DNA from: an uncultured Bacilli bacterium
Lineage (GTDB): Bacteria; Bacillota_I; Bacilli_A; RF39; UBA660
Direction of reading: 5' to 3'
Assembly: GCA_944373065.1 (NCBI GenBank)
Contig: CALWAJ010000002.1
Span: 1-46,567 of the forward strand
Length of the DNA: 46,567 nucleotides
The stretch's first letter is position 1. Each line of letters opens with the position of its first letter. Shown one piece after another: positions 9,049 to 28,393 of the stretch. Under the pieces are notes generated by a model. The model had not been told where the DNA came from. It did not search any database and saw nothing but the letters and a program-made list of their open reading frames with translations. Both the position numbers and the translations under genes were made by a program.

Positions 9049-9762
9049 ATGTTTGATAAAATTTGCTATCTTTTTATAATATTTATATTATATTCTTTTA
9101 TTGGTTACATTCTAGAAATTTCTAATTGTTCATTAAGAGAAAAAAAGTTAATATTAAATAGAGGTTTCTTTTTAGGCCCCTATCTACCTATATATGGTAT
9201 TTCTTGCCTTTTAATGGGAAGTATTATTATCAAATATAAAAATGATTTTTTAACAGTCTTTGTCATGAGTGCTTTTATATGTACAACCGTTGAATATATT
9301 ACAAGTTATATATTAGAAAAAATGTTTAAAGCTAGATGGTGGGATTATAGTGACCATAGATTTAATATTGAAGGAAGAGTTTGCCTTTTTAATGCTTGTT
9401 TATTTGGTTTAGGAGGAGTAGCTTTTACATATCTTGTTAATCCTTTTGTTACTAACATCTTAGATTCATTTTCTCCTTTTATCTTAAGAATAGTCGCTAT
9501 CATCCTTTTTACTATCTTCATTATCGATGTGATTATTACAATAACGACTCTCTGTCAAGTAAAAATATCATCTCTAAAATTTAAAAATAAAGATGTAACT
9601 AGTGAAATAACTAAAATTATAAGAGAAGAAATCAAAAGGAAAAGGGAAATCAAAAATAACTTCTTTGTTAGGCATATGTTAAGAGCATTCCCTAAAATAG
9701 ACTTAAAAGACAACACTTCCCTTGCTAAATTAAAAAAATATGTCTTAAAAAAGAAACACTAA
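9049..9762 (+). CDS. membrane protein, putative ABC-transporter type IV family (PF06541-like)
   Basis: Polytopic protein with the RWWDYSDHRFNIEGRVCL motif typical of that family. The start is ambiguous (GTG 9040, ATG 9043, ATG 9049). 9049 was chosen for its spacing from AGGTGA. Confidence 0.6.
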   Translation: MFDKICYLFIIFILYSFIGYILEISNCSLREKKLILNRGFFLGPYLPIYGISCLLMGSIIIKYKNDFLTVFVMSAFICTTVEYITSYILEKMFKARWWDYSDHRFNIEGRVCLFNACLFGLGGVAFTYLVNPFVTNILDSFSPFILRIVAIILFTIFIIDVIITITTLCQVKISSLKFKNKDVTSEITKIIREEIKRKREIKNNFFVRHMLRAFPKIDLKDNTSLAKLKKYVLKKKH

Positions 9763-16678: not shown

Positions 16679-19369
16679 ATGAGATATATGACTAGTAATG
16701 AGATTAGAAAGATGTGGGTTAAGTACTTTGAAGAACATGGGCATAAATATGTTAAATCAGCTCCCTTAATCCCAATCAATGACGATTCACTTCTTTGGAT
16801 TAATGCTGGAGTTACCCCTTTAAAAAAATATTTTGATGGAAGTGTTACTCCTGAATCTAGAAGAATTGTAAATATTCAAAAATGTATTAGAACTAATGAT
16901 ATAGAAAATGTAGGTATTACTAAAAGACATCAGACTTTCTTTGAAATGATGGGTAACTTTTCTATTGGTGATTACTTTAAAGATGAAGCGATAGAATTTG
17001 CCTATGAACTTTTAACAAGTAAAGATTGGTTTGCTATTCCTAAAGAGAAGCTTTATGTAACAGTATATATCAATGATACTGATGCTTATAACAAATGGCT
17101 AGAAGTAGGTATGGATGAGTCACACATTATAAAACTAGAAGGAAACTTTTGGGAAATAGGAGAAGGTCCATGTGGTCCAGATAGTGAGATATTCTTTGAT
17201 CAAGGTGAAAAATTAGATCCTGATGGTACTGCTTGGGAAAAATTCATTAATGATGAAGACCAAGATCGCTATGTAGAAATTTGGAACAACGTTTTCAGTC
17301 AATATAATTCTAAACCTGGTGTTCCTCGTGAAAAATATAAAGAACTACCTCATAAAAATATTGATACTGGAGCAGGACTTGAAAGATGGGCATGTATTTT
17401 TCAAGGAGTTGACTCTAATTTTGAAACTGACCTTTTCAAACCTATTATTGAAAAAATAGAAGAACTAAGTGGAGTTTTATATAATGGTGAAACAGCCTTT
17501 AAAGTTATTGCCGACCATATGAAAGCTGTAACATTCGCTATTGCAGATGGTGCTAGTTTTGGCAATACAGGACGTGATTATGTCTTAAGAAGATTAGTAA
17601 GACGTAGTGTTAGATTTGGAAGAACTCTAGGTTTCAAAGAACCTTTCCTTTACAAACTAGTACCTACTATTGTCATGGTTATGGGAGATGCTTATCCTGA
17701 ACTTAAGACTAACTCTGGAGAAATAGCTGTTTATATTCTTGATGAAGAAAAATTATTCTTTAATACTCTAGAAGATGGAGAACGTCGTCTAAAAGAAATA
17801 ATGAAAGATGATAACGATAAAGTGATAAGCGGTTATGATGCTTTTAAACTATACGATACTTTTGGTTTTCCTTTTGAACTTACAGAAGAAATAGCTAAAG
17901 AAAATGGTTATACAGTGAATTTAGAAGAATTTAATGATTATATGAATAAACAAAAAGAACTAGCTAAGAAAAATGCTCGTACTAAAACTGCTATGGCTAG
18001 TCAAAAGAAAGTATTAATGGAATTTACTAAAAGCTCTACCTTTGTCTATGGTTTATATCGTCTAAAAAGCAGTGTTCTTGCAATTGTTTCTAAAGACAAG
18101 TTAGAAAAGACTCTAGATCATGATGGTTATATTATCTTAAAAAGAACATGTTTCTATTCAGAGTCTGGTGGTCAAGTATCAGATACAGGTATGATTGTTG
18201 GTAAAAGCTTTAAAGCAAGAGTTGTTGATGTCTTTAAAGGTCCTAATGGTCAACATATTCATAAAATTAAACTATTAGATGGTAAAATTACTGTTAACGA
18301 TGAAGTTGAAGTAATTATCGATAAACAAAGAAGAAAAGAAATAGAAGCTAATCACTCTAGTGTTCATATCTTACAATATGCACTACAACAAGTAGTTGAT
18401 AAAAATATTAGACAGGCAGGTAGTTATGTTGATGAATTCAAACTAAGATTTGACTTTACTTGTCCATCTAAAATAAGTGATGAAGAAATCGTTAAAACAG
18501 AAGAACTAGTTAATAAAATTATTAAAAAAGGTGTTATTACTTCTACAGAGACTATGCCAATTGACAAAGCTAAAGAACTTGGGGCTATGGCTTTATTTGG
18601 TGAAAAATATGGTGAGACTGTTAGAGTAGTTAAAATTGATAAGTCAATCGAACTATGTGGTGGTACACATGTTGCCAACACTAAAGACATTAAACGTTTC
18701 GCTATCTTTAATTTTGAATCTAAAGGAAGTAACACCTATAGAATAGAAGCAGTTACTAATGATAGATTAGAAAATACATTATTTGAAGTTATTAAGCCAT
18801 ATAACGATGAAATGGTTAAACTATTAATAAAAGCTAAAGAGATACTTGCTTTAGCAACTAAACAAGGTATTAAATTAGATTTTGATGTAGATATCGATAA
18901 TACTGCACCAACTTCTTATAAAGACATAGTCTTTAATCAAAATGAACTTAGTTATATTCAAAGCGAAGTTAAAACCTTAGAAAAAACATATAACAATGAA
19001 TTAGAAAAATTAACTCTTAATAACTTAGATATATACTTAGATAGAGTTAAAGAAATAAACGGTAAGAAATTCTTATACTTAGAACTAGATAATATTGCTA
19101 TGTTCTTAGTTAAAGCTATGGCTGATGATTTATGTAATAAATTTGATCATGTCTTAATCTTTATCGCTAATATAAAAGAAGATAACAGCGTTAACTTTAT
19201 CTGTCGAAGTTCTCTAGATGATATAAATGCCGGTCTTCTTGTTAAAAGTGCTACCACTTCTTATGAAGGAAATGGTGGTGGAAGTGCTACTTTTGCCCAA
19301 GGTGGTATTAAGAATAAAAAACATCTTAAAGAAATCAAAAAAGAAATTGAGGCTTTACTAAATGAATAA
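16679..19369 (+). CDS. alaS: alanine--tRNA ligase
   Basis: Class II AlaRS N-terminus (FFEMMGNFSIGDYFK), editing-domain HSSVHIL and CGGTHV motifs, and a C-terminal GNGGGSATFAQGG segment. AAGGAG SD lies 9 nt upstream of ATG 16679. Confidence 0.95.
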   Translation: MRYMTSNEIRKMWVKYFEEHGHKYVKSAPLIPINDDSLLWINAGVTPLKKYFDGSVTPESRRIVNIQKCIRTNDIENVGITKRHQTFFEMMGNFSIGDYFKDEAIEFAYELLTSKDWFAIPKEKLYVTVYINDTDAYNKWLEVGMDESHIIKLEGNFWEIGEGPCGPDSEIFFDQGEKLDPDGTAWEKFINDEDQDRYVEIWNNVFSQYNSKPGVPREKYKELPHKNIDTGAGLERWACIFQGVDSNFETDLFKPIIEKIEELSGVLYNGETAFKVIADHMKAVTFAIADGASFGNTGRDYVLRRLVRRSVRFGRTLGFKEPFLYKLVPTIVMVMGDAYPELKTNSGEIAVYILDEEKLFFNTLEDGERRLKEIMKDDNDKVISGYDAFKLYDTFGFPFELTEEIAKENGYTVNLEEFNDYMNKQKELAKKNARTKTAMASQKKVLMEFTKSSTFVYGLYRLKSSVLAIVSKDKLEKTLDHDGYIILKRTCFYSESGGQVSDTGMIVGKSFKARVVDVFKGPNGQHIHKIKLLDGKITVNDEVEVIIDKQRRKEIEANHSSVHILQYALQQVVDKNIRQAGSYVDEFKLRFDFTCPSKISDEEIVKTEELVNKIIKKGVITSTETMPIDKAKELGAMALFGEKYGETVRVVKIDKSIELCGGTHVANTKDIKRFAIFNFESKGSNTYRIEAVTNDRLENTLFEVIKPYNDEMVKLLIKAKEILALATKQGIKLDFDVDIDNTAPTSYKDIVFNQNELSYIQSEVKTLEKTYNNELEKLTLNNLDIYLDRVKEINGKKFLYLELDNIAMFLVKAMADDLCNKFDHVLIFIANIKEDNSVNFICRSSLDDINAGLLVKSATTSYEGNGGGSATFAQGGIKNKKHLKEIKKEIEALLNE

Positions 19370-20273
19370 CTACATCTTAATAAGTGATAGTAAAACCTTA
19401 ATAGATAAAAAAATAGAGGAACTTATTAATAACGGCTTTAAAGATGCCATAGTTACTCATTATGACTTAGAAGAGAATAGTATCAACTCCTTAATAGAAG
19501 ATGCTGATACTATTTCTTTTCTTTCCCCTAATAAAGTAATTATAGGAGATAATTTCAATACTAATAATAGCTTAGATTCACTATTAAAATATCTAGATAA
19601 TCCTAATAATGACGTTCTCTTAATTTTAACTACCAAAAAATTAGATGAAAGAAAAAAAGAAATAAAAACACTTATGAAAAAATCTAATTATCTAAAATTA
19701 GAAGTTAGTCCTAAAAATATCTTAGATATGGAATTTAATGGCTATAAAGTAGATTTTAAAATTCTTAGACTCTTAGAAGAATATTATAAAAGTGATAATG
19801 AAAGACTAATAAGTGAATGTCAAAAATTAAAATTAGCATTCCTAGAAAGTAAGAATATTACTTATAAAGAAGCAAAAGAACTATTAGTTAAGCCTCTTAA
19901 TGATCAAGACAATCTTTCCTTTTCTTTAGTTAGAAATATTGCTATTAAAGATAAGAAAAATGCACTCTTAAATTATCAAGAACTTCTAAATTATAATATT
20001 GAATTTTTTACTATTATGGGGCTTTTAGAAAGTCAGTACCGTTTATTATATCAAGTAATGATTTTATCTAAACAAAATATCTCTTATAATGATATGGCTA
20101 AAATATTAGATGTTCATCCTTTTAGAGTTAAGAAAACTTTAGAATTACTTAGTTATTATACTAAAAAAGAGCTAACTAAAATCATTAAAAATTTAGCATC
20201 GCTTGACTATAAAGTTAAAAGTGGAGAAATGGATAAAGATTTAATAATAGACTTGTTAATTTTAAATAATTGA
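19362..20273 (+). CDS. holA: DNA polymerase III delta subunit
   Basis: KLDERKK and VHPFRVKK...LDYKVKSGEMDKDL segments follow the Bacillus HolA (YqeN) pattern. Overlaps the alaS stop by 8 nt. Confidence 0.85.
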   Translation: MNNYILISDSKTLIDKKIEELINNGFKDAIVTHYDLEENSINSLIEDADTISFLSPNKVIIGDNFNTNNSLDSLLKYLDNPNNDVLLILTTKKLDERKKEIKTLMKKSNYLKLEVSPKNILDMEFNGYKVDFKILRLLEEYYKSDNERLISECQKLKLAFLESKNITYKEAKELLVKPLNDQDNLSFSLVRNIAIKDKKNALLNYQELLNYNIEFFTIMGLLESQYRLLYQVMILSKQNISYNDMAKILDVHPFRVKKTLELLSYYTKKELTKIIKNLASLDYKVKSGEMDKDLIIDLLILNN

Positions 20274-20289
20274 CTAAAGTCTATTTTTT

Positions 20290-20298
20290 TGGTATAAT
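20290..20298 (+). promoter_or_regulatory. TG-extended -10 box (tggtataat)
   Basis: Located 28 nt upstream of ATG 20326 and followed by an AGAGGGGG SD. Confidence 0.5.
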
Positions 20299-20325
20299 AC
20301 GGCTACTTACAGAGGGGGTATTTAT

Positions 20326-21597
20326 ATGAAATGCGATTTAAGTTTTGATCAAATAATATTATTGCTAGAACAAGCTACTACTAAGGAAGAATTATTATTA
20401 ATTAAGTGGAAATATAATAGATATTTATCATCAGCACACAAATCTATAGAATTTCAAGAAAAGTTTAATAAGTACTTTGATATGCTTGCTTTAAAAGAAG
20501 CGAAAAATAATAAGAAGGATATTGTCTTAAGTTTAGTTAAAACCTATAAAATTAATGGTGATATATATAAAGAAGCCTTAAATAAAGCTGAAGAATATAA
20601 TATTGGTATTTACAATATTCTAGATTTATTAAACTTACTATTTAAAAGTAAAAACTTTACTAGCAAAGAATTATATATAATAAGCAATATAAAACAAGAA
20701 ATAGAACATAAATTAATTATTTCCCGTAATTTAAAAGAAATGGATACAGACTATGTTATTGCTAAAACAATTTTAAACATGTTCTTATCTTATGGAGTTA
20801 TAGAGTTAAAAGAATTTAGAAGCAAAACTAACTGTACAACTTCTGCTTTTGATAATGCTTTAAATATATTAAATAATAGAAATCATCCTTTATATTTGCA
20901 ATACATCGATATAAAAGAAAAGAAGTTTAAAGAAAAAGTTGCTTTTAGAAGAGAAATAAAAGAAGATGCCTTTCAAGCAGAAAGAAGAAAAATGATTGAA
21001 AAAATAACATCTGCTAATGGAAAAGAAATATGTGAAATATTGTCAGATATCAATAAGTATCATAATGAATATGCTATTTTTTGTGAAGTGTATGACTTAA
21101 ATAAATTCTTCTTAACAAAACTAATAAGAAGATTTCCTAAAACTATTTTAGAACTTACTAGTGATTTAAGTAATCTAAAAAATGTTTATAACGAATATAA
21201 AGCTAGATATTTATTATTGATTGATAAAGTAATAGAAGAAATAAACGAAGCTAAACTAACTGGAGTGCCTTTTGATTTATATCATTATTATTTAGAAAAC
21301 AGCATTCCAATTGAAGAATTAGAGTATATTGCCAAAGAATTAAAAGAGCAAGATAAAGATATAATTCAACAATATATAATGAGTAACTATAAGCTGTTAA
21401 AAGGTTATGGTAAAAAAGAAATAGACATTGTAAGAGATAGAAAAATACTTACTTGTGATAACGCAACGATAAATTTCACAAGAGAAGAACTTGATAATGC
21501 TTTAGAAGATATTGAAACTAATAATTTACCTTTATATAAAGGAATTCTATATGGAGCTATAAAAGAACAAAAAAGTAAAACTAAAAGAAAGGCTTAA
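20326..21597 (+). CDS. hypothetical protein (423 aa); C-terminal domain shared with the product of 39362..41110
   Basis: Long ORF with a strong SD and helical-looking composition. The C-terminal ~110 aa (VPFDLYHYYL ... NNLPLYKGILYGAI) is colinear with RPFEILDYFL ... NNIPLYTKVYKQAL of the 582-aa protein. Confidence 0.7.
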   Translation: MKCDLSFDQIILLLEQATTKEELLLIKWKYNRYLSSAHKSIEFQEKFNKYFDMLALKEAKNNKKDIVLSLVKTYKINGDIYKEALNKAEEYNIGIYNILDLLNLLFKSKNFTSKELYIISNIKQEIEHKLIISRNLKEMDTDYVIAKTILNMFLSYGVIELKEFRSKTNCTTSAFDNALNILNNRNHPLYLQYIDIKEKKFKEKVAFRREIKEDAFQAERRKMIEKITSANGKEICEILSDINKYHNEYAIFCEVYDLNKFFLTKLIRRFPKTILELTSDLSNLKNVYNEYKARYLLLIDKVIEEINEAKLTGVPFDLYHYYLENSIPIEELEYIAKELKEQDKDIIQQYIMSNYKLLKGYGKKEIDIVRDRKILTCDNATINFTREELDNALEDIETNNLPLYKGILYGAIKEQKSKTKRKA

Positions 21598-21602
21598 GAA
21601 TA

Positions 21603-22949
21603 ATGCATGATTTCGTTAATGAATTAAATAAAATAATGGCTATTAGAAGTATTATTATAGATAAATCTAAGAAAAATATGTCTTTAAAAGAAGCTATATA
21701 TTTTTCTTTAGAATATCAAAAACACATATATAGTGATGTTGCTTCAAAATTATATGAAATAGAAGAGGCTATGTTTGAAAATCATGATAATGGTAATTTG
21801 TTTATCAATGATAATGGCGGTTTTGATTTAGAATATAGAAATGCTGAAAACGATATTATAAAAATAAAATTTTGTATAACAGGACACGATGGTGAAAAAG
21901 CCGAAGTAATGATTATTTGTCCTGAAAACGGAAAAGAATTAATAAATAGAATTAAATTTTATGCTAATATGTATTATAAAGATTTCATGAAAATAGAAGA
22001 AACAAATAATGAAAATAAAAATATAACGTTCTTTGATAAAAACTATGATACCTTACAATTTCCCTTCATAACAAAAAAAGAAAACGATAATTACAATTTT
22101 AAAGTTAATTTAGAAATACATGATAATATATTAATTTTTAAAGCTCAAATTATAAATAAAGAAGATGATATTAGCTGTATTACAATTAAATATGATAATG
22201 TCAAAATGAATTATTTTGAATGTACTTATCAATATTCCTATATTTTCGATGGTAAAATATGGACGCAATCTCTAAATCAAGAAGAAATAAGCTATATTCT
22301 AAATAACTTATATATTCCTACTAATTATTTTGAAAATTATATATTAAGTTATATGGGTGAAAGAGCTAGAATTAGGAAAAACTATATAGAAAGAAAAGAA
22401 GAACCCGAAATTGCTGAAATTAGTGATTTAAGGAAATCTATAATTAGCGAAAAAATAAATAAGAATAAAGAATTAATAGATGAATTAATAAAAGAAAATC
22501 AAGAATTAGCTGAACAATTAAAAATTAAAATGCCTATTTTAAGGGAAGAGTTATTAGATGAAATAAATGATAATTATTATATTATTAAAGATAAATATAA
22601 AAATGTCTTAAGTGATTATGATTTATCTAAAATATCATTTGATAACGTAGATATAAGAGGAATAGACTTTAGAGGAACAAATATTAATAGTAGTTTATTT
22701 GATTTACAAAAAGTTCATAATAAATATGCCTCAGACTGTAACTTTTCAACAGATGAAGATAATGTTAAAGATTATATTTTTGGCTATGATACAGATTTTA
22801 CTGGTGTAAATTTAAGTGGAACAGATATGAATAATCCATATCCTATTCTTTTAAATTCTACTATTAATAAAGCCTATATTGATGAATTTACAATTTTACC
22901 TGGATTCTATCAAGATAAAGTTAAAAAGAAAACTTTGTTTATGTCTTAA
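21603..22949 (+). CDS. pentapeptide-repeat protein, paralog 1 (divergent N-domain + coiled coil + pentapeptide C-domain)
   Basis: C-terminus DLSKISFDNVDIRGIDFRGTNINSSLFDL ... DFTGVNLSGTDMNN has the pentapeptide periodicity. It is preceded by a heptad-like NKELIDELIKENQELAEQLK segment. Confidence 0.75.
   Translation: MHDFVNELNKIMAIRSIIIDKSKKNMSLKEAIYFSLEYQKHIYSDVASKLYEIEEAMFENHDNGNLFINDNGGFDLEYRNAENDIIKIKFCITGHDGEKAEVMIICPENGKELINRIKFYANMYYKDFMKIEETNNENKNITFFDKNYDTLQFPFITKKENDNYNFKVNLEIHDNILIFKAQIINKEDDISCITIKYDNVKMNYFECTYQYSYIFDGKIWTQSLNQEEISYILNNLYIPTNYFENYILSYMGERARIRKNYIERKEEPEIAEISDLRKSIISEKINKNKELIDELIKENQELAEQLKIKMPILREELLDEINDNYYIIKDKYKNVLSDYDLSKISFDNVDIRGIDFRGTNINSSLFDLQKVHNKYASDCNFSTDEDNVKDYIFGYDTDFTGVNLSGTDMNNPYPILLNSTINKAYIDEFTILPGFYQDKVKKKTLFMS
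22617..22931 (+). repeat. Near-identical 315-bp block, copy 1 (3' end of paralog 1)
   Basis: By-eye alignment with 24154-24468 shows about 14 mismatches and no indels. Identity falls sharply upstream of the block. Confidence 0.85.
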
Positions 22950-22995
22950 GTAGATTACCCTACATTATATTTATTATTGCAATTATATATTTTTT

Positions 22996-23004
22996 TGATA
23001 TAAT
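22996..23004 (+). promoter_or_regulatory. TG-extended -10 box (tgatataat) with possible TTGCAA -35
   Basis: tgatataat at 22996-23004; TTGCAA at 22977-22982 with a 16-nt spacer. Confidence 0.5.
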
Positions 23005-23028
23005 AAACCATACTGGCAGGTGGCAGGA

Positions 23029-24480
23029 ATGGAAAATAATTATTTAAAAAAAACATTAAGGGAATTAAAAAAAACAATTTTAAAAGAAAAAGCCTTTAGA
23101 GATTTCTTTAATTTTGAAGATAAAATTAATTTAATTAAATTAAACGATCTTTATAGTAATTGTTTATATAGTATTTCTAAAGATATATTAGATGAAAAGA
23201 AAGTTTTAGAAAAAGAATTAAGTACATTAAATAACAAGAAAATCAGTATAGATTTTTCTTGTTATGTTCAACATTACGTTTCTGGAAATAAAGAATTAGA
23301 AATTAACTTAAACTACCAAAAAGATTATTTTTGCAATTTAACGGTAAGCGACTCTTCTCCTATAGCATTTGAAATTTATGATGATAAAGAAAAAAAATAT
23401 TATATTACCTGGTCTCCTGACTATGAATCTAGAATTAAGGATATAGATGAAGAAATTCATAGAAAAATAGTTAATTTAGGAGTTAAAATTAAATTTTTTC
23501 TCGACAGCACAGAAGAATTTACATATTATTACGTTACAAAACATATAGATGATAATATTGACTATAATATTAAGATTAAATTTCAGCACTATATACTAAC
23601 AGATGAAAATAAAAAAATTGAATATTTTAATAAATATATGATTAAAATAAAATTTTTTAATATAAAACATGAAGATGCATTTTCAAAAAAAGAACCATTG
23701 TTAAGATTTAATGAAGAGAGTATTATTTTAGAATTTGATATAGAAAAAAATTATTTAACAGGAAAGTATATCTATTCTAAAAACGGATCTGGAAGTATAT
23801 ATGGACATATAGATGAAAAAATTGAAATTAAAAATATGGACATACTCTATAGCCTATTACATTTAATAAAAATACCAAAAAAAGATTTACCTAATATACT
23901 TTTAGAGCAATCAGAAAGTAGTTTAATAGAAGAAATGACTTCTGAAGAAGATAATTTGGAAAATCAATTAATTGAAAAAGAAATAGAAGAAAACAATAAA
24001 AAGATTGAAGAACTTTTTTCTAAGAACAAAGAATTAATGGAAAAATTACATAGACGTTTACCAATTTTATCTACACAATTATTTAAAGAAGTAGAAAAAA
24101 ATGGTGAAAAATATTATATTATAAATTATGAATATAAATATATCTTACGAAACTATGATTTATCTAAAATATCGTTTGATAACGTAGATATAAGAGGAAT
24201 AGATTTTAGAGGGACAAATATTAATAGTAGTTTATTTGATTTACAAAAAGTTCATAATAAAGATGCTTCAAACTGTAACTTTTCAACAGATGAAGATAAT
24301 GCTAAAGATTATATTTTTGGCTATGATACAGATTTTACTGGTGTAAATTTAAGCGGAACAGATATGAGTAATCCATATCCTATTCTTTTAAACTCTACTA
24401 TTAATAAAGCATATATTGATGAATTTACAATTTTACCAGAATTTTATCAAGATAAAGTTAAAAAGAAATCTCTATGGTAA
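23029..24480 (+). CDS. pentapeptide-repeat protein, paralog 2
   Basis: Same architecture as 21603..22949. Start set to ATG 23029, 7 nt after AGGTGG. The C-terminal ~105 aa are nearly identical to paralog 1. Confidence 0.75.
   Translation: MENNYLKKTLRELKKTILKEKAFRDFFNFEDKINLIKLNDLYSNCLYSISKDILDEKKVLEKELSTLNNKKISIDFSCYVQHYVSGNKELEINLNYQKDYFCNLTVSDSSPIAFEIYDDKEKKYYITWSPDYESRIKDIDEEIHRKIVNLGVKIKFFLDSTEEFTYYYVTKHIDDNIDYNIKIKFQHYILTDENKKIEYFNKYMIKIKFFNIKHEDAFSKKEPLLRFNEESIILEFDIEKNYLTGKYIYSKNGSGSIYGHIDEKIEIKNMDILYSLLHLIKIPKKDLPNILLEQSESSLIEEMTSEEDNLENQLIEKEIEENNKKIEELFSKNKELMEKLHRRLPILSTQLFKEVEKNGEKYYIINYEYKYILRNYDLSKISFDNVDIRGIDFRGTNINSSLFDLQKVHNKDASNCNFSTDEDNAKDYIFGYDTDFTGVNLSGTDMSNPYPILLNSTINKAYIDEFTILPEFYQDKVKKKSLW
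24154..24468 (+). repeat. Near-identical 315-bp block, copy 2 (3' end of paralog 2)
   Basis: Partner of 22617-22931. Confidence 0.85.
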
Positions 24481-24493
24481 ACTTTAATATATT

Positions 24494-24502
24494 TGATATA
24501 AT
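24494..24502 (+). promoter_or_regulatory. TG-extended -10 box (tgatataat)
   Basis: Same nonamer as at 22996-23004. Lies 14 nt after the stop of paralog 2 and 22 nt before ATG 24524. Confidence 0.45.
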
Positions 24503-24523
24503 ATATTAAAGAGGATGATAACA

Positions 24524-24811
24524 ATGAATAATAAAGTGATTAAAACAAGCCAAGGAACTTTTCCAATATCCGTTTTAGAAAAAGATATGTATGATGTGAA
24601 TCTTCCAGAATATCTTGATAACGATATAAAAGCTTTACTAAAAGGCATTAAAGAAGATAGTAATCTACTAGATTGTTTAATGTATGAAGTGTATAGTTCG
24701 ATAAATATTGCTTATTTTGAAAATGAAATTAGTGAAAAACATGCTAATCATCTAAGAGAAAAGTATTTATTAATGAGCTGTAAAGTAAGAGGTGACAAAG
24801 ATGCTAAATAA
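24524..24811 (+). CDS. hypothetical 95-aa protein, overlapping partner of the HipA-type kinase gene
   Basis: Start set to ATG 24524, 9 nt after AAAGAGG. The stop TAA 24809-24811 overlaps the kinase start by 11 nt. No HTH or other motif recognised. Confidence 0.6.
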   Translation: MNNKVIKTSQGTFPISVLEKDMYDVNLPEYLDNDIKALLKGIKEDSNLLDCLMYEVYSSINIAYFENEISEKHANHLREKYLLMSCKVRGDKDAK

Positions 24812-25703
24812 TTTTAATAATTACAAAATAAATAAATTTAAATATTATGATGGTAGAAACGGTAATAAAATCTGCCTTGAAGATGAGTTTGGAACAAAAT
24901 ATATGTTAAAAACACCTCCAGTAAAAAATGAAAAAGATGAAAATAAATATTATACTAATGGTTGTATTTCTGAACATATAGGATGTCTAATATATAAATC
25001 ATTAGGATTTAAAACTCAAGAAACTAAATTGGGTCTTTATAACATCAACGGAAAAAATAAATTATGTGTTTTATGTAAAGATTTTGAAATAAATAATAAA
25101 AAACTCTTTAAATTTGCTGAAATTAAAAATAGTATAATCTCATCAAGTGAAAACGGCTTTGGAGTAGAATTATCTAGTGTATTAGAAGCTATAGAAGAAC
25201 AAAGTAATATTGATCCTATAAAATTAAAAGAATTTTATTTTGATATGTTCATTGTTGATGCTTTTCTTGGAAATTTTGACCGCCATAATGGTAATTGGGG
25301 ATTATTATTAGATGATATTAATAAAACTAGTGAAATCGCTCCTATTTATGATTGTGGCAGTTGTCTATATCCAGCACTTGATGATGAAAAGATAAAAGAA
25401 ATTCTAAGCAATCCTGAAGAAATTGAAGCAAGGATTTATATTTTTCCTAATTCGATTTTAAAAATTAATGGTCAAAAAATCAATTATTTTGAATATATCA
25501 GCTCTCTTAAAAATAAAGACTGTAATGAAGCGTTAAAAAGAATTGGTAGAAAGATAAACTTAGATAAAATTAATAAAATTATTGATGGAATAGAAGAAAT
25601 ATCTGATATAAGAAAAGAATTTTATAAAACTATACTAAATTTACGCAAAGAAAAAATTATAGATTATTCACTAAATTTATTATCTGAAAAAGAAGAATTT
25701 TAA
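24801..25703 (+). CDS. HipA_C-type Ser/Thr kinase lacking the HipA N-terminal domain
   Basis: Catalytic loop FLGNFDRHNGNWG and Mg-binding-like APIYDCGS match the HipA C-terminal kinase core. ATP-site-like GTKYMLK lies near the N-terminus. At 300 aa it is much shorter than the ~440 aa of canonical HipA. ATG 24801 lies 9 nt after AAGAGG. Confidence 0.75.
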   Translation: MLNNFNNYKINKFKYYDGRNGNKICLEDEFGTKYMLKTPPVKNEKDENKYYTNGCISEHIGCLIYKSLGFKTQETKLGLYNINGKNKLCVLCKDFEINNKKLFKFAEIKNSIISSSENGFGVELSSVLEAIEEQSNIDPIKLKEFYFDMFIVDAFLGNFDRHNGNWGLLLDDINKTSEIAPIYDCGSCLYPALDDEKIKEILSNPEEIEARIYIFPNSILKINGQKINYFEYISSLKNKDCNEALKRIGRKINLDKINKIIDGIEEISDIRKEFYKTILNLRKEKIIDYSLNLLSEKEEF

Positions 25704-26917
25704 GAATCCTTCTTTAATTTTTCTAAATATAAATATATCTCTTTTAATTTAGATTCATAACCTAAATTTTTAGGATGATAATATTTCTTATCTTTTAATT
25801 TATCAGGCAAATACTGTTGTCTAACAAAAGCATTTTTATAATCATGAGGATATTTATAAGTATTAGATGGATTCTTTAAGTGCTTTGGAATATCACCGAC
25901 ATTTCCTTTTTCTATATCACTTAAAGCTTCATCTAAAGCTATATGAGCAGTATTACTTTTAGGAGACAAAGCCATCTCTGTAACAATTGTTCCAAGAGGA
26001 ATTCTAGCTTCCGGTAATCCCACTAACTTAGCCGCTTCAATTGCAGACATTACTTTAGGACCAATAGAAGGATTAGCAAGACCTATATCTTCATAAGCAA
26101 TAACTGCCATTCGTCTAAAAACACTATCTAAATCACCAATCGTAATTAATCTTGCTAAATAATGTAAGCTTGCATCGACATCACTACCTCTAATAGACTT
26201 TTGAAAAGCTGATAACATATCATAATAAGCATCACCATTTTTATCTGCAAAGAAAACAGGCTTAGTATTTATCTTTTTTACAACTTCTAAATCTACTTTA
26301 AAATCGCTAGTAGAAAAGTAAGATATTTCTAAAAGATTATAAGCAAATCTTAAGTCATTTCCCGATATATTAGCAATATACTTAATAGTTTCCTCATCTA
26401 TTTTAATATTAGGTAAATAAGGACTTTTAATCGCTCTTTTTAAACCTTCAACGATATCTTCAGTTTCTAGCTCTTTAAGTTCAAATAATTGACATCTTGA
26501 TCTAATAGCAGGATTAATTGCATGATATGGATTACTAGTAGTCATCCCTATTAAAGTAATAAGGCCACTTTCTAACTGTGGTAATAAAATATCTTGTTTA
26601 TCTTTATTTAGTCTGTGTATTTCATCCATAACTAAAACTAAACCATCATACATTTTCGCCTCTTCAATAACAATATCTAAATCTTTTTTAGAATTAACTG
26701 TAGCATTTAAAAATCTATGTCTAATACCCAAATCATTAATCATAGCATTTGCAATAGAAGTTTTACCAATTCCGGGCTTACCATATAAAATCATCGAAAA
26801 CAACTTCTTATTCTTAACAAGATTGCTAAGAATCATATTATCTCCAATTAAATGTTTTTGTCCAAGAACTTCATTTAAATGCTTTGGAGCCATTTTTAAC
26901 GCTAAAGGCTTATCCAT
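25700..26917 (-). CDS. rarA: replication-associated recombination protein A (AAA+ ATPase)
   Basis: Walker A GKPGIGKTS, Walker B LVLVMDEIHR, and the MgsA C-terminal domain (YYDMLSAFQKSIRGSD, PKHLKN, YKYPHDY). Confidence 0.9.
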   Translation of the reverse strand: MDKPLALKMAPKHLNEVLGQKHLIGDNMILSNLVKNKKLFSMILYGKPGIGKTSIANAMINDLGIRHRFLNATVNSKKDLDIVIEEAKMYDGLVLVMDEIHRLNKDKQDILLPQLESGLITLIGMTTSNPYHAINPAIRSRCQLFELKELETEDIVEGLKRAIKSPYLPNIKIDEETIKYIANISGNDLRFAYNLLEISYFSTSDFKVDLEVVKKINTKPVFFADKNGDAYYDMLSAFQKSIRGSDVDASLHYLARLITIGDLDSVFRRMAVIAYEDIGLANPSIGPKVMSAIEAAKLVGLPEARIPLGTIVTEMALSPKSNTAHIALDEALSDIEKGNVGDIPKHLKNPSNTYKYPHDYKNAFVRQQYLPDKLKDKKYYHPKNLGYESKLKEIYLYLEKLKKDS

Positions 26918-27007: not shown

Positions 27008-27973
27008 ATGGAATATAAAAACGAATTAGAAGGATATTGTAAAGAATATAAAAATTTAACAACTTTATTAAAAGTAGATGAAAATAGTTTAGAAGGAATT
27101 AAAGAAAACTTAAGAAAAACTAGAGCTGGGTCTTTCTTTTTAAGCTTAAATGAAAATCAAAGAGTTGAGTTTTCTACAATTTATAAAGATAGTAATATTG
27201 ATAACTATATCTTGAAAGAAGAAAGCATTAAAAAGGAAAAAGAGGAAAAAAGGCAATTAATACAAAAGATATTATCGTGCCAAGAATTTCCATTTTCTAA
27301 AGATGATGAACATATATTTATAAAAAGTGGCAACGAACTATATAATGCCGTAACCGCTGAAAGCACTGAGTCTATTAAAAATGACGATATAAAAAAAGTT
27401 ATTATTGATGTAGTTGGAGAAAGTTATAGTATAAGTAAATTTAACTATTTTGATATACCATTAATTAAAGTACTTTATGAAAGGTATAAAAGATATAATC
27501 AAACAGAAAACAGCAAAGAATTAGAGTTAATTATAATAGAAAAAGCTAGTCAAATTTTATATAATGAGAAAAAAGAGGAAAAAAGAACACCACTTATACC
27601 TGATGAAGAATATAATAAGTTAAAAGAAGAATTGTTTACTAAGATAACAGACTTAGAATATGGTAATATTACTTTTACTCCTGAAAATAAAAAGCTAGTT
27701 GAAGAAATGCTTTATACTGCCAAATTCGAAATTGAACTACTTCATGGAAAAAGTATTGAAGAGTTAATTGATTATACTAGAAGTTCTGTTACAAAAGATA
27801 ACTACGAACGAGAAATAACTTATTTAGCAAAAGCATGCTATAACTTAACTAATCAAAATTTTGTTTATGATTGTACATATCCTAATACTTTTGATTTATG
27901 GAATAAAACTGATATGTTCGAAACAAGTAATCGTGTAATTAATCAAAAAATACTTGAAATGAAGAAAAGATAG
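27008..27973 (+). CDS. hypothetical protein (321 aa); N-terminal ~100 aa paralogous to 27980..28393
   Basis: AAGGAGGG SD. The first ~100 residues align without gaps to the next gene's product (L7, Y10, KEY12-14, AG40-41, L45, L47, F55, IY58-59, D61, Y67, FPF). Confidence 0.7.
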   Translation: MEYKNELEGYCKEYKNLTTLLKVDENSLEGIKENLRKTRAGSFFLSLNENQRVEFSTIYKDSNIDNYILKEESIKKEKEEKRQLIQKILSCQEFPFSKDDEHIFIKSGNELYNAVTAESTESIKNDDIKKVIIDVVGESYSISKFNYFDIPLIKVLYERYKRYNQTENSKELELIIIEKASQILYNEKKEEKRTPLIPDEEYNKLKEELFTKITDLEYGNITFTPENKKLVEEMLYTAKFEIELLHGKSIEELIDYTRSSVTKDNYEREITYLAKACYNLTNQNFVYDCTYPNTFDLWNKTDMFETSNRVINQKILEMKKR

Positions 27974-27979
27974 AGTTTT

Positions 27980-28393
27980 ATGATAAACGAAACAAAATTA
28001 AGAGAATATTATAAAGAGTATCTTTTAATAGAAAAAATTATAGCAGAAAGAGAAACAAAAAGAGATAAATTATATAATATTTTTAAAGAAAGTAAAGCCG
28101 GGAAACTTTACTTAAGATTAAGTGAAGAAGAACAACAAACTTTTGAATATATTTATACCGATGCAACATATCAACAATATTTATTTTATGAAAAGCAAGT
28201 AACTGAATTCAAAGAGGCAAGGAATAAATTATTATTAAATATTTCTCAAGATAGGGAAGTTTTTCCGTTTAAACAAAATGAGATACTTGAATCATTAAAT
28301 ATTTCTGATGATTTAAAAGAATTTATGCAAATGATAACTTTGAAAATCAACAATACAAATAATAATTATAAATTTAATAAAAATAAATTATGA
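27980..28393 (+). CDS. hypothetical protein (137 aa), paralog of the N-terminus of 27008..27973
   Basis: Starts 6 nt after the upstream stop. Colinear conserved positions are listed under 27008..27973. Confidence 0.65.
   Translation: MINETKLREYYKEYLLIEKIIAERETKRDKLYNIFKESKAGKLYLRLSEEEQQTFEYIYTDATYQQYLFYEKQVTEFKEARNKLLLNISQDREVFPFKQNEILESLNISDDLKEFMQMITLKINNTNNNYKFNKNKL

Follow-up and report, generated by a model that had tools for sequence, protein, structure and literature searches.

What is the nature of the five-gene block that separates holA from rarA in an uncultured Bacilli bacterium from the gut? The window (the whole stretch of DNA analysed, 46,567 nucleotides of contig CALWAJ010000002.1, with a G+C content of about 25%) carries between these two genes an orphan gene, two pentapeptide-repeat genes, a small open reading frame (ORF) and a HipA-like kinase gene. 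We propose that the block combines two units that are independent of each other, namely a mobile kinase pair and a set of lineage-specific orphan and pentapeptide genes, and that the pair is a HipBA-like kinase and inhibitor. We give this reading a probability of about 0.6. It is drawn from gene identities, domain architectures, the pattern of co-occurrence and rearrangements, all of which are directly observed, and it extends by inference to partner-kinase binding, inhibition of the kinase and toxicity of the kinase.

A kinase and the small gene that travels with it

The kinase pair occupies the right-hand end of the block:

24524-24811, + strand: small ORF, the kinase partner, 95 amino acids; putative antitoxin or inhibitor
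24801-25703, + strand: kinase, 300 amino acids; CtkA-family Ser/Thr kinase (by homology) with a HipA-like fold

The two ORFs overlap by 11 nucleotides (nt), and the partner ORF contains, 6 nt upstream of the kinase ATG, a strong Shine-Dalgarno sequence for kinase translation, AAGAGGTG. To map the pair elsewhere, species-representative genomes were scanned with an alignment of the kinase, 80 loci were kept, and loci from an exact look-up were added. A tblastn search with the 95-amino-acid ORF found a match directly upstream of the kinase in 81 of the 84 loci from other genomes, and in two of the three misses (L084 and L086) the upstream ORF visibly bears the partner family motif. Apart from the partner, no gene is conserved around the kinase: the cluster that ranks next is present in 12 of 76 neighbourhoods. 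The preliminary description, made from the sequence of the window, had placed the kinase and the pentapeptide genes in one layout; in the mapped neighbourhoods of relatives only the small ORF travels with the kinase.

The region common to the partners is a helical domain of ~60 amino acids with the consensus LPxYLQHDLDAxKxG...LLDCLWGELYGSINxAEIxDGxITxExAxYLRxKYL, for which the short form of the motif is LPxYL...LDCLxxEvYgSIN...ISxExAxxLRxKYL. In 44 of 73 loci outside the clade, a Cro/C1-type helix-turn-helix (HTH) is located N-terminal to this domain, and these long forms match Pfam HTH_26 (E from 1e-9 to 1e-13) before running into the shared C-terminal domain; the remainder, the window included, are short forms. 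The domain itself has 201 representatives at 50% clustering and no match in Pfam, NCBIfam, PADLOC or the PDB sequences, and the NCBIfam matches of whole partners are confined to their HTH parts. Matches to S20, VSG and the like in a PDB profile search with the domain were rejected as chance matches. Kinship with VbhA-like Fic antitoxins was considered, given that VbhA/Fic neighbour some of the kinases, and was dropped as supported by no model.

The kinase aligns end to end with CtkA of Helicobacter pylori (phmmer against the PDB: 3AKJ_A, E=6e-77, query residues 5-290 to chain residues 6-286 of 325), and its length is normal for a family of more than 5268 homologues, which measure ~290-315 amino acids and come mainly from Clostridia. 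Judged by its sequence it is a full-length CtkA-family member, and not truncated as it had first appeared. The names given to homologues at NCBI include 'CtkA family' and 'HipA domain-containing', and a 57%-identical relative is entered as 'CtkA family protein'. In the motif alignment (A1) of 11 diverse family members, residues G18, N20, G21 and K23 of the Gly-rich loop, the ATP-binding K37, R161-N165 and D184-G186 are invariant and D160 is nearly so; the catalytic motif DRHNGN corresponds to D160-N165 and the Mg-binding DCG to D184-G186. The initial label of a truncated HipA-type kinase is thus incorrect. The protein scores below the Pfam HipA_C gathering threshold, and its link to the HipA superfamily is supported only by PADLOC models (PDC-M03A, PDLC04340, E=2.7e-32, and seven other PDC-M03A models) together with the CtkA structure.

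Mobile relatives and a proposed mode of action

The pair spans Bacillota and Campylobacterota, and some of its copies reside on plasmids or conjugative elements. On the Campylobacter fetus plasmid pCfviMP1 (L099:3745-5732), partner, kinase and a Fic gene stand in a row. On a Megamonas plasmid (L100:2430-4885), the kinase is found amid VbhA/Fic and Fst toxin-antitoxin genes, with a different ORF of 136 amino acids upstream instead of the usual partner. Some of the kinase loci have relaxase-, VirB4- or integrase-like neighbours, and one scaffold labelled as 'phage', a label that is unverified, bears an HTH-containing partner, the kinase and a relaxase-like ORF. H. pylori ctkA is itself cargo of an integrative and conjugative element (ICE), inserted at a hot spot that is occupied alternately by ctkA and by AbiE-like and Fic genes (PMC12443045). 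The CtkA-type kinases beside Fic/VbhA on the C. fetus and Megamonas plasmids mirror this ctkA/fic cargo hot spot of H. pylori ICEHptfs3.

Taken together, a partner that is upstream, overlapping and in many cases equipped with an HTH, a kinase of the HipA superfamily and a mobile context amount to the signature of a type II toxin-antitoxin or abortive-infection module. HipA-superfamily kinases are model toxins for persistence and abortive phage defence. We propose that Unit 1 (24494-25703) is a self-promoted bicistron in which partner and kinase would be translationally coupled. First, the ~60-amino-acid helical domain of the partner would bind the kinase and keep it inactive. Second, when the partner is lost or titrated, the kinase would phosphorylate an intracellular target. 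In most relatives the HTH of the partner would confer autoregulation on the operon, and the window version may have lost the HTH or may never have had it. In the clade of the window, the pair is chromosomal and lodged against the 3' end of rarA.

Could the kinase be instead a secreted, host-directed effector like H. pylori CtkA, with its neighbours as unrelated cargo? CtkA is its closest solved homologue, and the sample names mark the organism as gut-dwelling. However, the window kinase lacks the last ~30 residues of CtkA (300 versus 325 amino acids; the alignment ends at CtkA residue 286 with 10 query residues left), and it is this C-terminal region of CtkA that has been proposed as a secretion signal (PMC12443045). 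Furthermore, no type IV secretion genes are seen nearby in the window ORF list, which is mostly unannotated, and a conserved, often HTH-bearing partner argues for an intracellular regulatory logic. We consider a secreted effector highly improbable.

Gene order across relatives separates the two units

The remaining genes of the block and the genes that flank it are the following:

19362-20273, + strand: holA (DNA polymerase III delta), left flank, outside both units; Pfam DNA_pol3_delta_C E=1.2e-29, DNA_pol3_delta E=1.2e-16
20326-21597, + strand: orphan, 423 amino acids, all-helical (predicted), clade-restricted; first gene of the orphan-pentapeptide unit
21603-22949, + strand: pentapeptide-repeat protein A (PRP-A), 448 amino acids; unique N-terminal domain, long helix, pentapeptide-repeat tail
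23029-24480, + strand: PRP-B, 483 amino acids (486 if the start is the GTG at 23020); alpha/beta N-terminal domain, predicted coiled-coil helix, pentapeptide-repeat tail
25700-26917, - strand: rarA/mgsA, right flank, convergent, outside both units; Pfam MgsA_C E=2.5e-53

All five same-strand ORFs are present as first described, and Pfam domain matches bear out the flanks, holA ending at 20273 and convergent rarA reaching to 25700. The end of the kinase ORF overlaps the rarA stop by 4 nt. Relatives of the source organism, deposited as metagenome-assembled genomes of 'uncultured Bacilli' or 'Tenericutes' (one chromosome is circular, at 1.5 Mb), display the following arrangements:

Window species and strains: holA, orphan, PRP-A, PRP-B, partner, kinase, rarA
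L010, L013: holA, orphan, partner, kinase, rarA; no pentapeptide gene
L012: a pentapeptide-head remnant and two other ORFs before the orphan
L006, L011: holA, orphan, partner, kinase, duplicated rarA 3' end (~88-93 codons), PRP-B, decayed partner and kinase pseudogenes, rarA
L090-L092: tyrS, orphan, pentapeptide gene, rarA; no partner or kinase

With the exception of the window species, in which all sampled strains (L001, L093-L098) keep the five genes contiguous and on the same strand, the components are found apart: they are separate in L010, L011, L012, L013, L092 and ~75 unrelated kinase loci. The preliminary description had favoured a conflict locus five genes in extent. The small ORF and kinase sustain the first half of that suggestion, with their toxin-antitoxin layout, PDC-M03A match and mobile relatives; the five-gene extent is not borne out, the orthologues being dispersed rather than linked among relatives.

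A single conflict or defence system of five genes, in which the pentapeptide proteins are sensors with variable heads, the orphan provides a scaffold or regulator and the kinase is the effector, would account for the strict contiguity in the window species, for pentapeptide heads that differ while their tails are kept identical, and for a partner that, having no HTH of its own, could rely on another regulator. It fails because the genes do not travel together across loci. The orphan and a pentapeptide gene persist without the kinase in L092, the pair persists without pentapeptide genes in L010, L013 and the ~75 unrelated loci, and L011 has its pentapeptide gene relocated to the opposite side of the kinase. 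In addition, the block contains three separate promoter-like sites, and neither the orphan nor the pentapeptide proteins have PADLOC matches. Such a system is therefore improbable. We are equally doubtful of a later version of it, according to which an HTH-less kinase module came to depend on its neighbours, the orphan for regulation and the pentapeptide proteins, through their hypervariable heads and homogenised tails, as interchangeable sensors, and so became a new multi-component kinase-based conflict system in a reduced-genome lineage.

Pentapeptide copy number and position differ between species. In L010 and L013, the orphan reads into a pentapeptide tail (KVKKKxL*), which fits loss of the pentapeptide gene by deletion. 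In L011 (8640-9120) and likewise in L006 (12685-13122), downstream of PRP-B lies a second promoter-partner-kinase copy that has decayed through stop codons and internal deletions, and the intact pair together with a duplicate of the last ~88-93 rarA codons lies upstream of it. We infer that L011 is an intermediate: a duplication would have placed the pair, with a piece of rarA, upstream of PRP-B, after which the original copy fell into decay; recombination between its two rarA ends would give the L010-type order. In L090-L092, the region has been rearranged, since its left flank is tyrS instead of alaS-holA. A gene for an IS110-family transposase (1550-2875) precedes the orphan-pentapeptide pair of these loci by ~4 kb.

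At the rarA end (window 25690-25725) is a terminator hairpin whose left arm consists of the final kinase codons (EKEEF*). L092, which has no kinase, possesses a similar left arm at 9414-9450 that reads EEGF*; this arm is either a deletion scar or else the product of hairpin complementarity.

Is the pair a housekeeping component?

The same chromosomal site holds the pair in the window species and in four other related species sampled, and across these the kinase is 82-83% and the partner 69-75% identical. We therefore considered that the kinase and its 95-amino-acid partner are a domesticated signalling pair, a regulatory subunit with its Ser/Thr kinase, belonging to the core genome of the clade and not acting as a toxin. 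The constant rarA-adjacent site in five species, identities that indicate purifying selection, the retention of one intact copy in L011 while the duplicate decayed and the absence of an autoregulatory HTH domain are all as expected of such a pair. Outside the clade, however, the distribution is patchy and extends to plasmids and conjugative elements beside other toxin-antitoxin genes; a close relative, L092, whose rarA is 88% identical, has no pair; and a short layout of two overlapping genes, with an HTH in the partner, is what toxin-antitoxin modules typically show. Domestication is thus a credible minority explanation, to which we give perhaps one chance in five.

Several of these observations, along with others, count against the composite, HipBA-like reading that we prefer. 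The fixed site of the pair looks like stable vertical inheritance and not like a selfish patchy element, and fits a domesticated regulatory kinase. The five genes occur together in every sampled strain of the window species, so that a lineage-specific functional link among them may exist. An HTH domain was not found in the window partner, unlike in a classical type II antitoxin, and the kinase reaches 26.2 bits with Pfam HipA_C (E=7.4e-6), short of the gathering cut-off of 30.5. To our knowledge, H. pylori CtkA is the only characterised member of the family, and it is described as a host-directed kinase, not as a toxin.

The orphan and pentapeptide genes

Unit 2 (20270-24480) consists of fast-evolving, lineage-restricted genes, the orphan and the pentapeptide genes, and in the window the pentapeptide gene is duplicated, with heads that are unrelated and tails that recombination has probably homogenised. 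PRP-A starts 5 nt after the orphan stop codon, and orphan-pentapeptide gaps are 2-5 nt across loci; because the two genes abut in this way, they are probably co-transcribed.

We detect the orphan family nowhere outside the small clade to which the pentapeptide family is also confined. The homologue search for the orphan gave only relatives of at least 90% identity; the more distant ones, full-length and 27-30% identical, came from tblastn on the fetched loci (L006, L010, L012, L013 and L092). Searches of Pfam, NCBIfam, PHROGs and PADLOC returned noise only, and a profile search against PDB sequences returned nothing below E=0.2. The AlphaFold2 model of the orphan is all-helical and poor (predicted local distance difference test, pLDDT, 53.6), and Foldseek with this model gave no match in the PDB below E=0.9. 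In L097, an internal deletion shortens the orphan to 272 amino acids.

PRP-A and PRP-B have in common their C-terminal ~190 amino acids only, at 68% identity, and their N-terminal domains have no similarity by BLASTP or hhalign. Both exceed the gathering score of Pfam Pentapeptide (PF00805), with 22.4 and 23.3 bits, respectively, against 20.2, and the pentad register is readable (DLSKI/SFDNV/DIRGI/DFRGT/NINSS...). In the AlphaFold2 model of PRP-B (pLDDT 67.5; tail pLDDT 83-92), a long helix spans residues 307-340 and is consistent with a coiled coil. BLASTP, Pfam scores and the model helix thus agree with the architecture first put forward for two tandem paralogues, a divergent N-domain followed by a coiled coil and a pentapeptide C-domain. 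Foldseek with the PRP-B model found no match at E<=0.001 in the PDB or BFVD, and weak matches to an actin-capping-protein fold (TM ~0.09) were rejected. The whole pentapeptide family forms 22 clusters among 5.8 billion proteins. Among its heads, hhalign detects weak co-linear signals between the B-type, P0133-type and P0132-type (E from 3e-4 to 0.07), which are suggestive of kinship. The A-type head matches none of these three and has a weak 43-column match to P0131 (E=0.004).

The tails are a different matter. The following segment has a repeat partner in PRP-B:

22555-22949, + strand: homogenised PRP-A tail, repeat partner of 24092-24480 (PRP-B)

Within the tails is a direct repeat of 300 nt with 91% identity. 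Amino acid identity between the two proteins jumps from ~43% to ~93% at PRP-A residue ~337 and PRP-B residue ~374, and beyond this switch point it is 90-97% for protein and 92-96% for DNA. So sharp a switch indicates, on the evidence of the alignment, that the pentapeptide tail underwent recent gene conversion or recombination between PRP-A and PRP-B. In three strains (L096:3351-4787, L097:8001-9437 and L098:825-2261), a PRP-A allele (P0128) has no stop near the KVKKK tail and extends 32 amino acids further, ending where PRP-B starts.

Promoter-like sites

How would the block be transcribed? The preliminary description had noted three TG-extended -10 boxes, and TGNTATAAT is indeed located at 20290, 22996 and 24494. 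The motif is weakly enriched in the window, with 15 observed occurrences against 9.4 +/- 2.8 expected. The surrounding elements are as follows:

20270-20298, + strand: predicted promoter-like site upstream of the orphan; TTGACT, 17 nt, TGgTATAAT
22977-23004, + strand: predicted promoter-like site upstream of PRP-B; TTGCAA, 16 nt, TGaTATAAT
24455-24523, + strand: conserved junction; last codons of PRP-B (KVKKKSLW*), TGATATAAT box at 24494-24502, ribosome-binding site of the small ORF

The site upstream of the orphan is the best promoter match of the region, at 11/12 plus the TG extension. The third box, upstream of the small ORF, is kept across species, and in L010, L011 and L013 the same ~70-nt junction stands before the small ORF, even though it is the orphan that lies upstream there; the promoter and junction of the pair are thus kept whichever gene stands upstream. 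Since the first two boxes are preceded by good -35 hexamers and the third is retained from species to species, three transcription units are plausible from the sequence: orphan with PRP-A, PRP-B alone, and small ORF with kinase.

Beyond rarA, a further clade-specific orphan family is encoded downstream of that gene (window 27008-27973 and 27980-28393). In relatives, this family comprises two tandem paralogues of ~323 and ~325 amino acids. In the window the second paralogue has only 137 amino acids and is followed by a short ORF and then mutS, and it is therefore probably truncated.

Significance and comparison with known systems

A CtkA-type pair would add one more layout to the ten catalogued for HipA-superfamily kinases. 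The partner, which in many cases is fused to an HTH, has as its basis a domain described in no library, and the pair is frequent among gut Bacillota as well as on plasmids and conjugative elements. Furthermore, H. pylori CtkA, at present regarded as a virulence kinase aimed at the host, may be a toxin or immunity kinase of a mobile element. That the whole CtkA family, the H. pylori kinase included, is the toxin of an undescribed HipBA-like family, with an antitoxin built on a new ~60-amino-acid helical domain, is a tentative extension for which we would give slightly less than even odds. We attach less importance to the orphan and pentapeptide genes, which are an example of how lineage-specific genes in a small genome turn over quickly, duplicate and undergo gene conversion.

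Like Qnr and MfpA (PF00805), PRP-A and PRP-B contain pentapeptide repeats, but in the tail only, where the C-terminal ~100 amino acids form ~14 pentads, each centred on a hydrophobic residue. Over the whole protein they have no similarity to Qnr or MfpA, the tail of PRP-A and PRP-B following an alpha/beta head of ~300 amino acids and a coiled coil. With respect to PADLOC, PDC-M03 is a two-gene candidate composed of a HipA-like kinase and a HIRAN-domain protein (PMC13245101). The window kinase matches component A, the HipA-like kinase. For component B, no neighbour has a PADLOC or Pfam HIRAN match, and the downstream gene is rarA; because no HIRAN gene is present, the window locus is not a member of PDC-M03.

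CtkA (JHP0940; PDB 3AKJ, 3AKK and 3AKL) is, like the window kinase, a short HipA-like kinase without the N-subdomain-1 of HipA, and window residues D160 and D184 align with CtkA 155 and 179 (by alignment offset). Relatives are mobile-element cargo, whereas the window kinase itself is chromosomal, beside rarA. In the literature library that we searched, nothing came up on a CtkA family, CtkA-like proteins or CtkA homologues.

The catalogue of Hip kinase toxin-antitoxin modules by Gerdes et al. (2021) lists ten operon layouts, among them short kinases with an upstream HTH/Stl-like HipR, or with downstream HipS, HIRAN or resolvase-like partners (PMC8262856). CtkA is not mentioned in the text of that work, and the part of its Table S1 covered here contains neither of the CtkA motifs, RHNGNWG and DCGSCL (PMC8262856); an apparent 'hipRG' match in that part of the table is a peptide string and was rejected. 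With HipBA, HipBST, hipRG, hipIN, hipJS and hipMP, the window pair shares a HipA-superfamily kinase in a compact operon with a small partner, and with the short-kinase modules (hipRG, hipIN, hipJS and hipMP) it shares the lack of N-subdomain-1. HipB and HipR have an Xre/Cro HTH, as do many homologues of the window partner, which is encoded upstream of the kinase as in hipBA and hipRG. What seems to set the window partner apart from the HipB, HipS, HIRAN, Stl-like and resolvase-like antitoxins is its ~60-amino-acid domain, which has no match among Pfam and NCBIfam models or solved structures. Because CtkA is absent from the text of Gerdes et al., its motifs from the covered part of Table S1 and a CtkA family from the library searched, we class partner and kinase as a variant of the Hip-type pair for which we found no description, neither a new category of system nor a new system of five genes.

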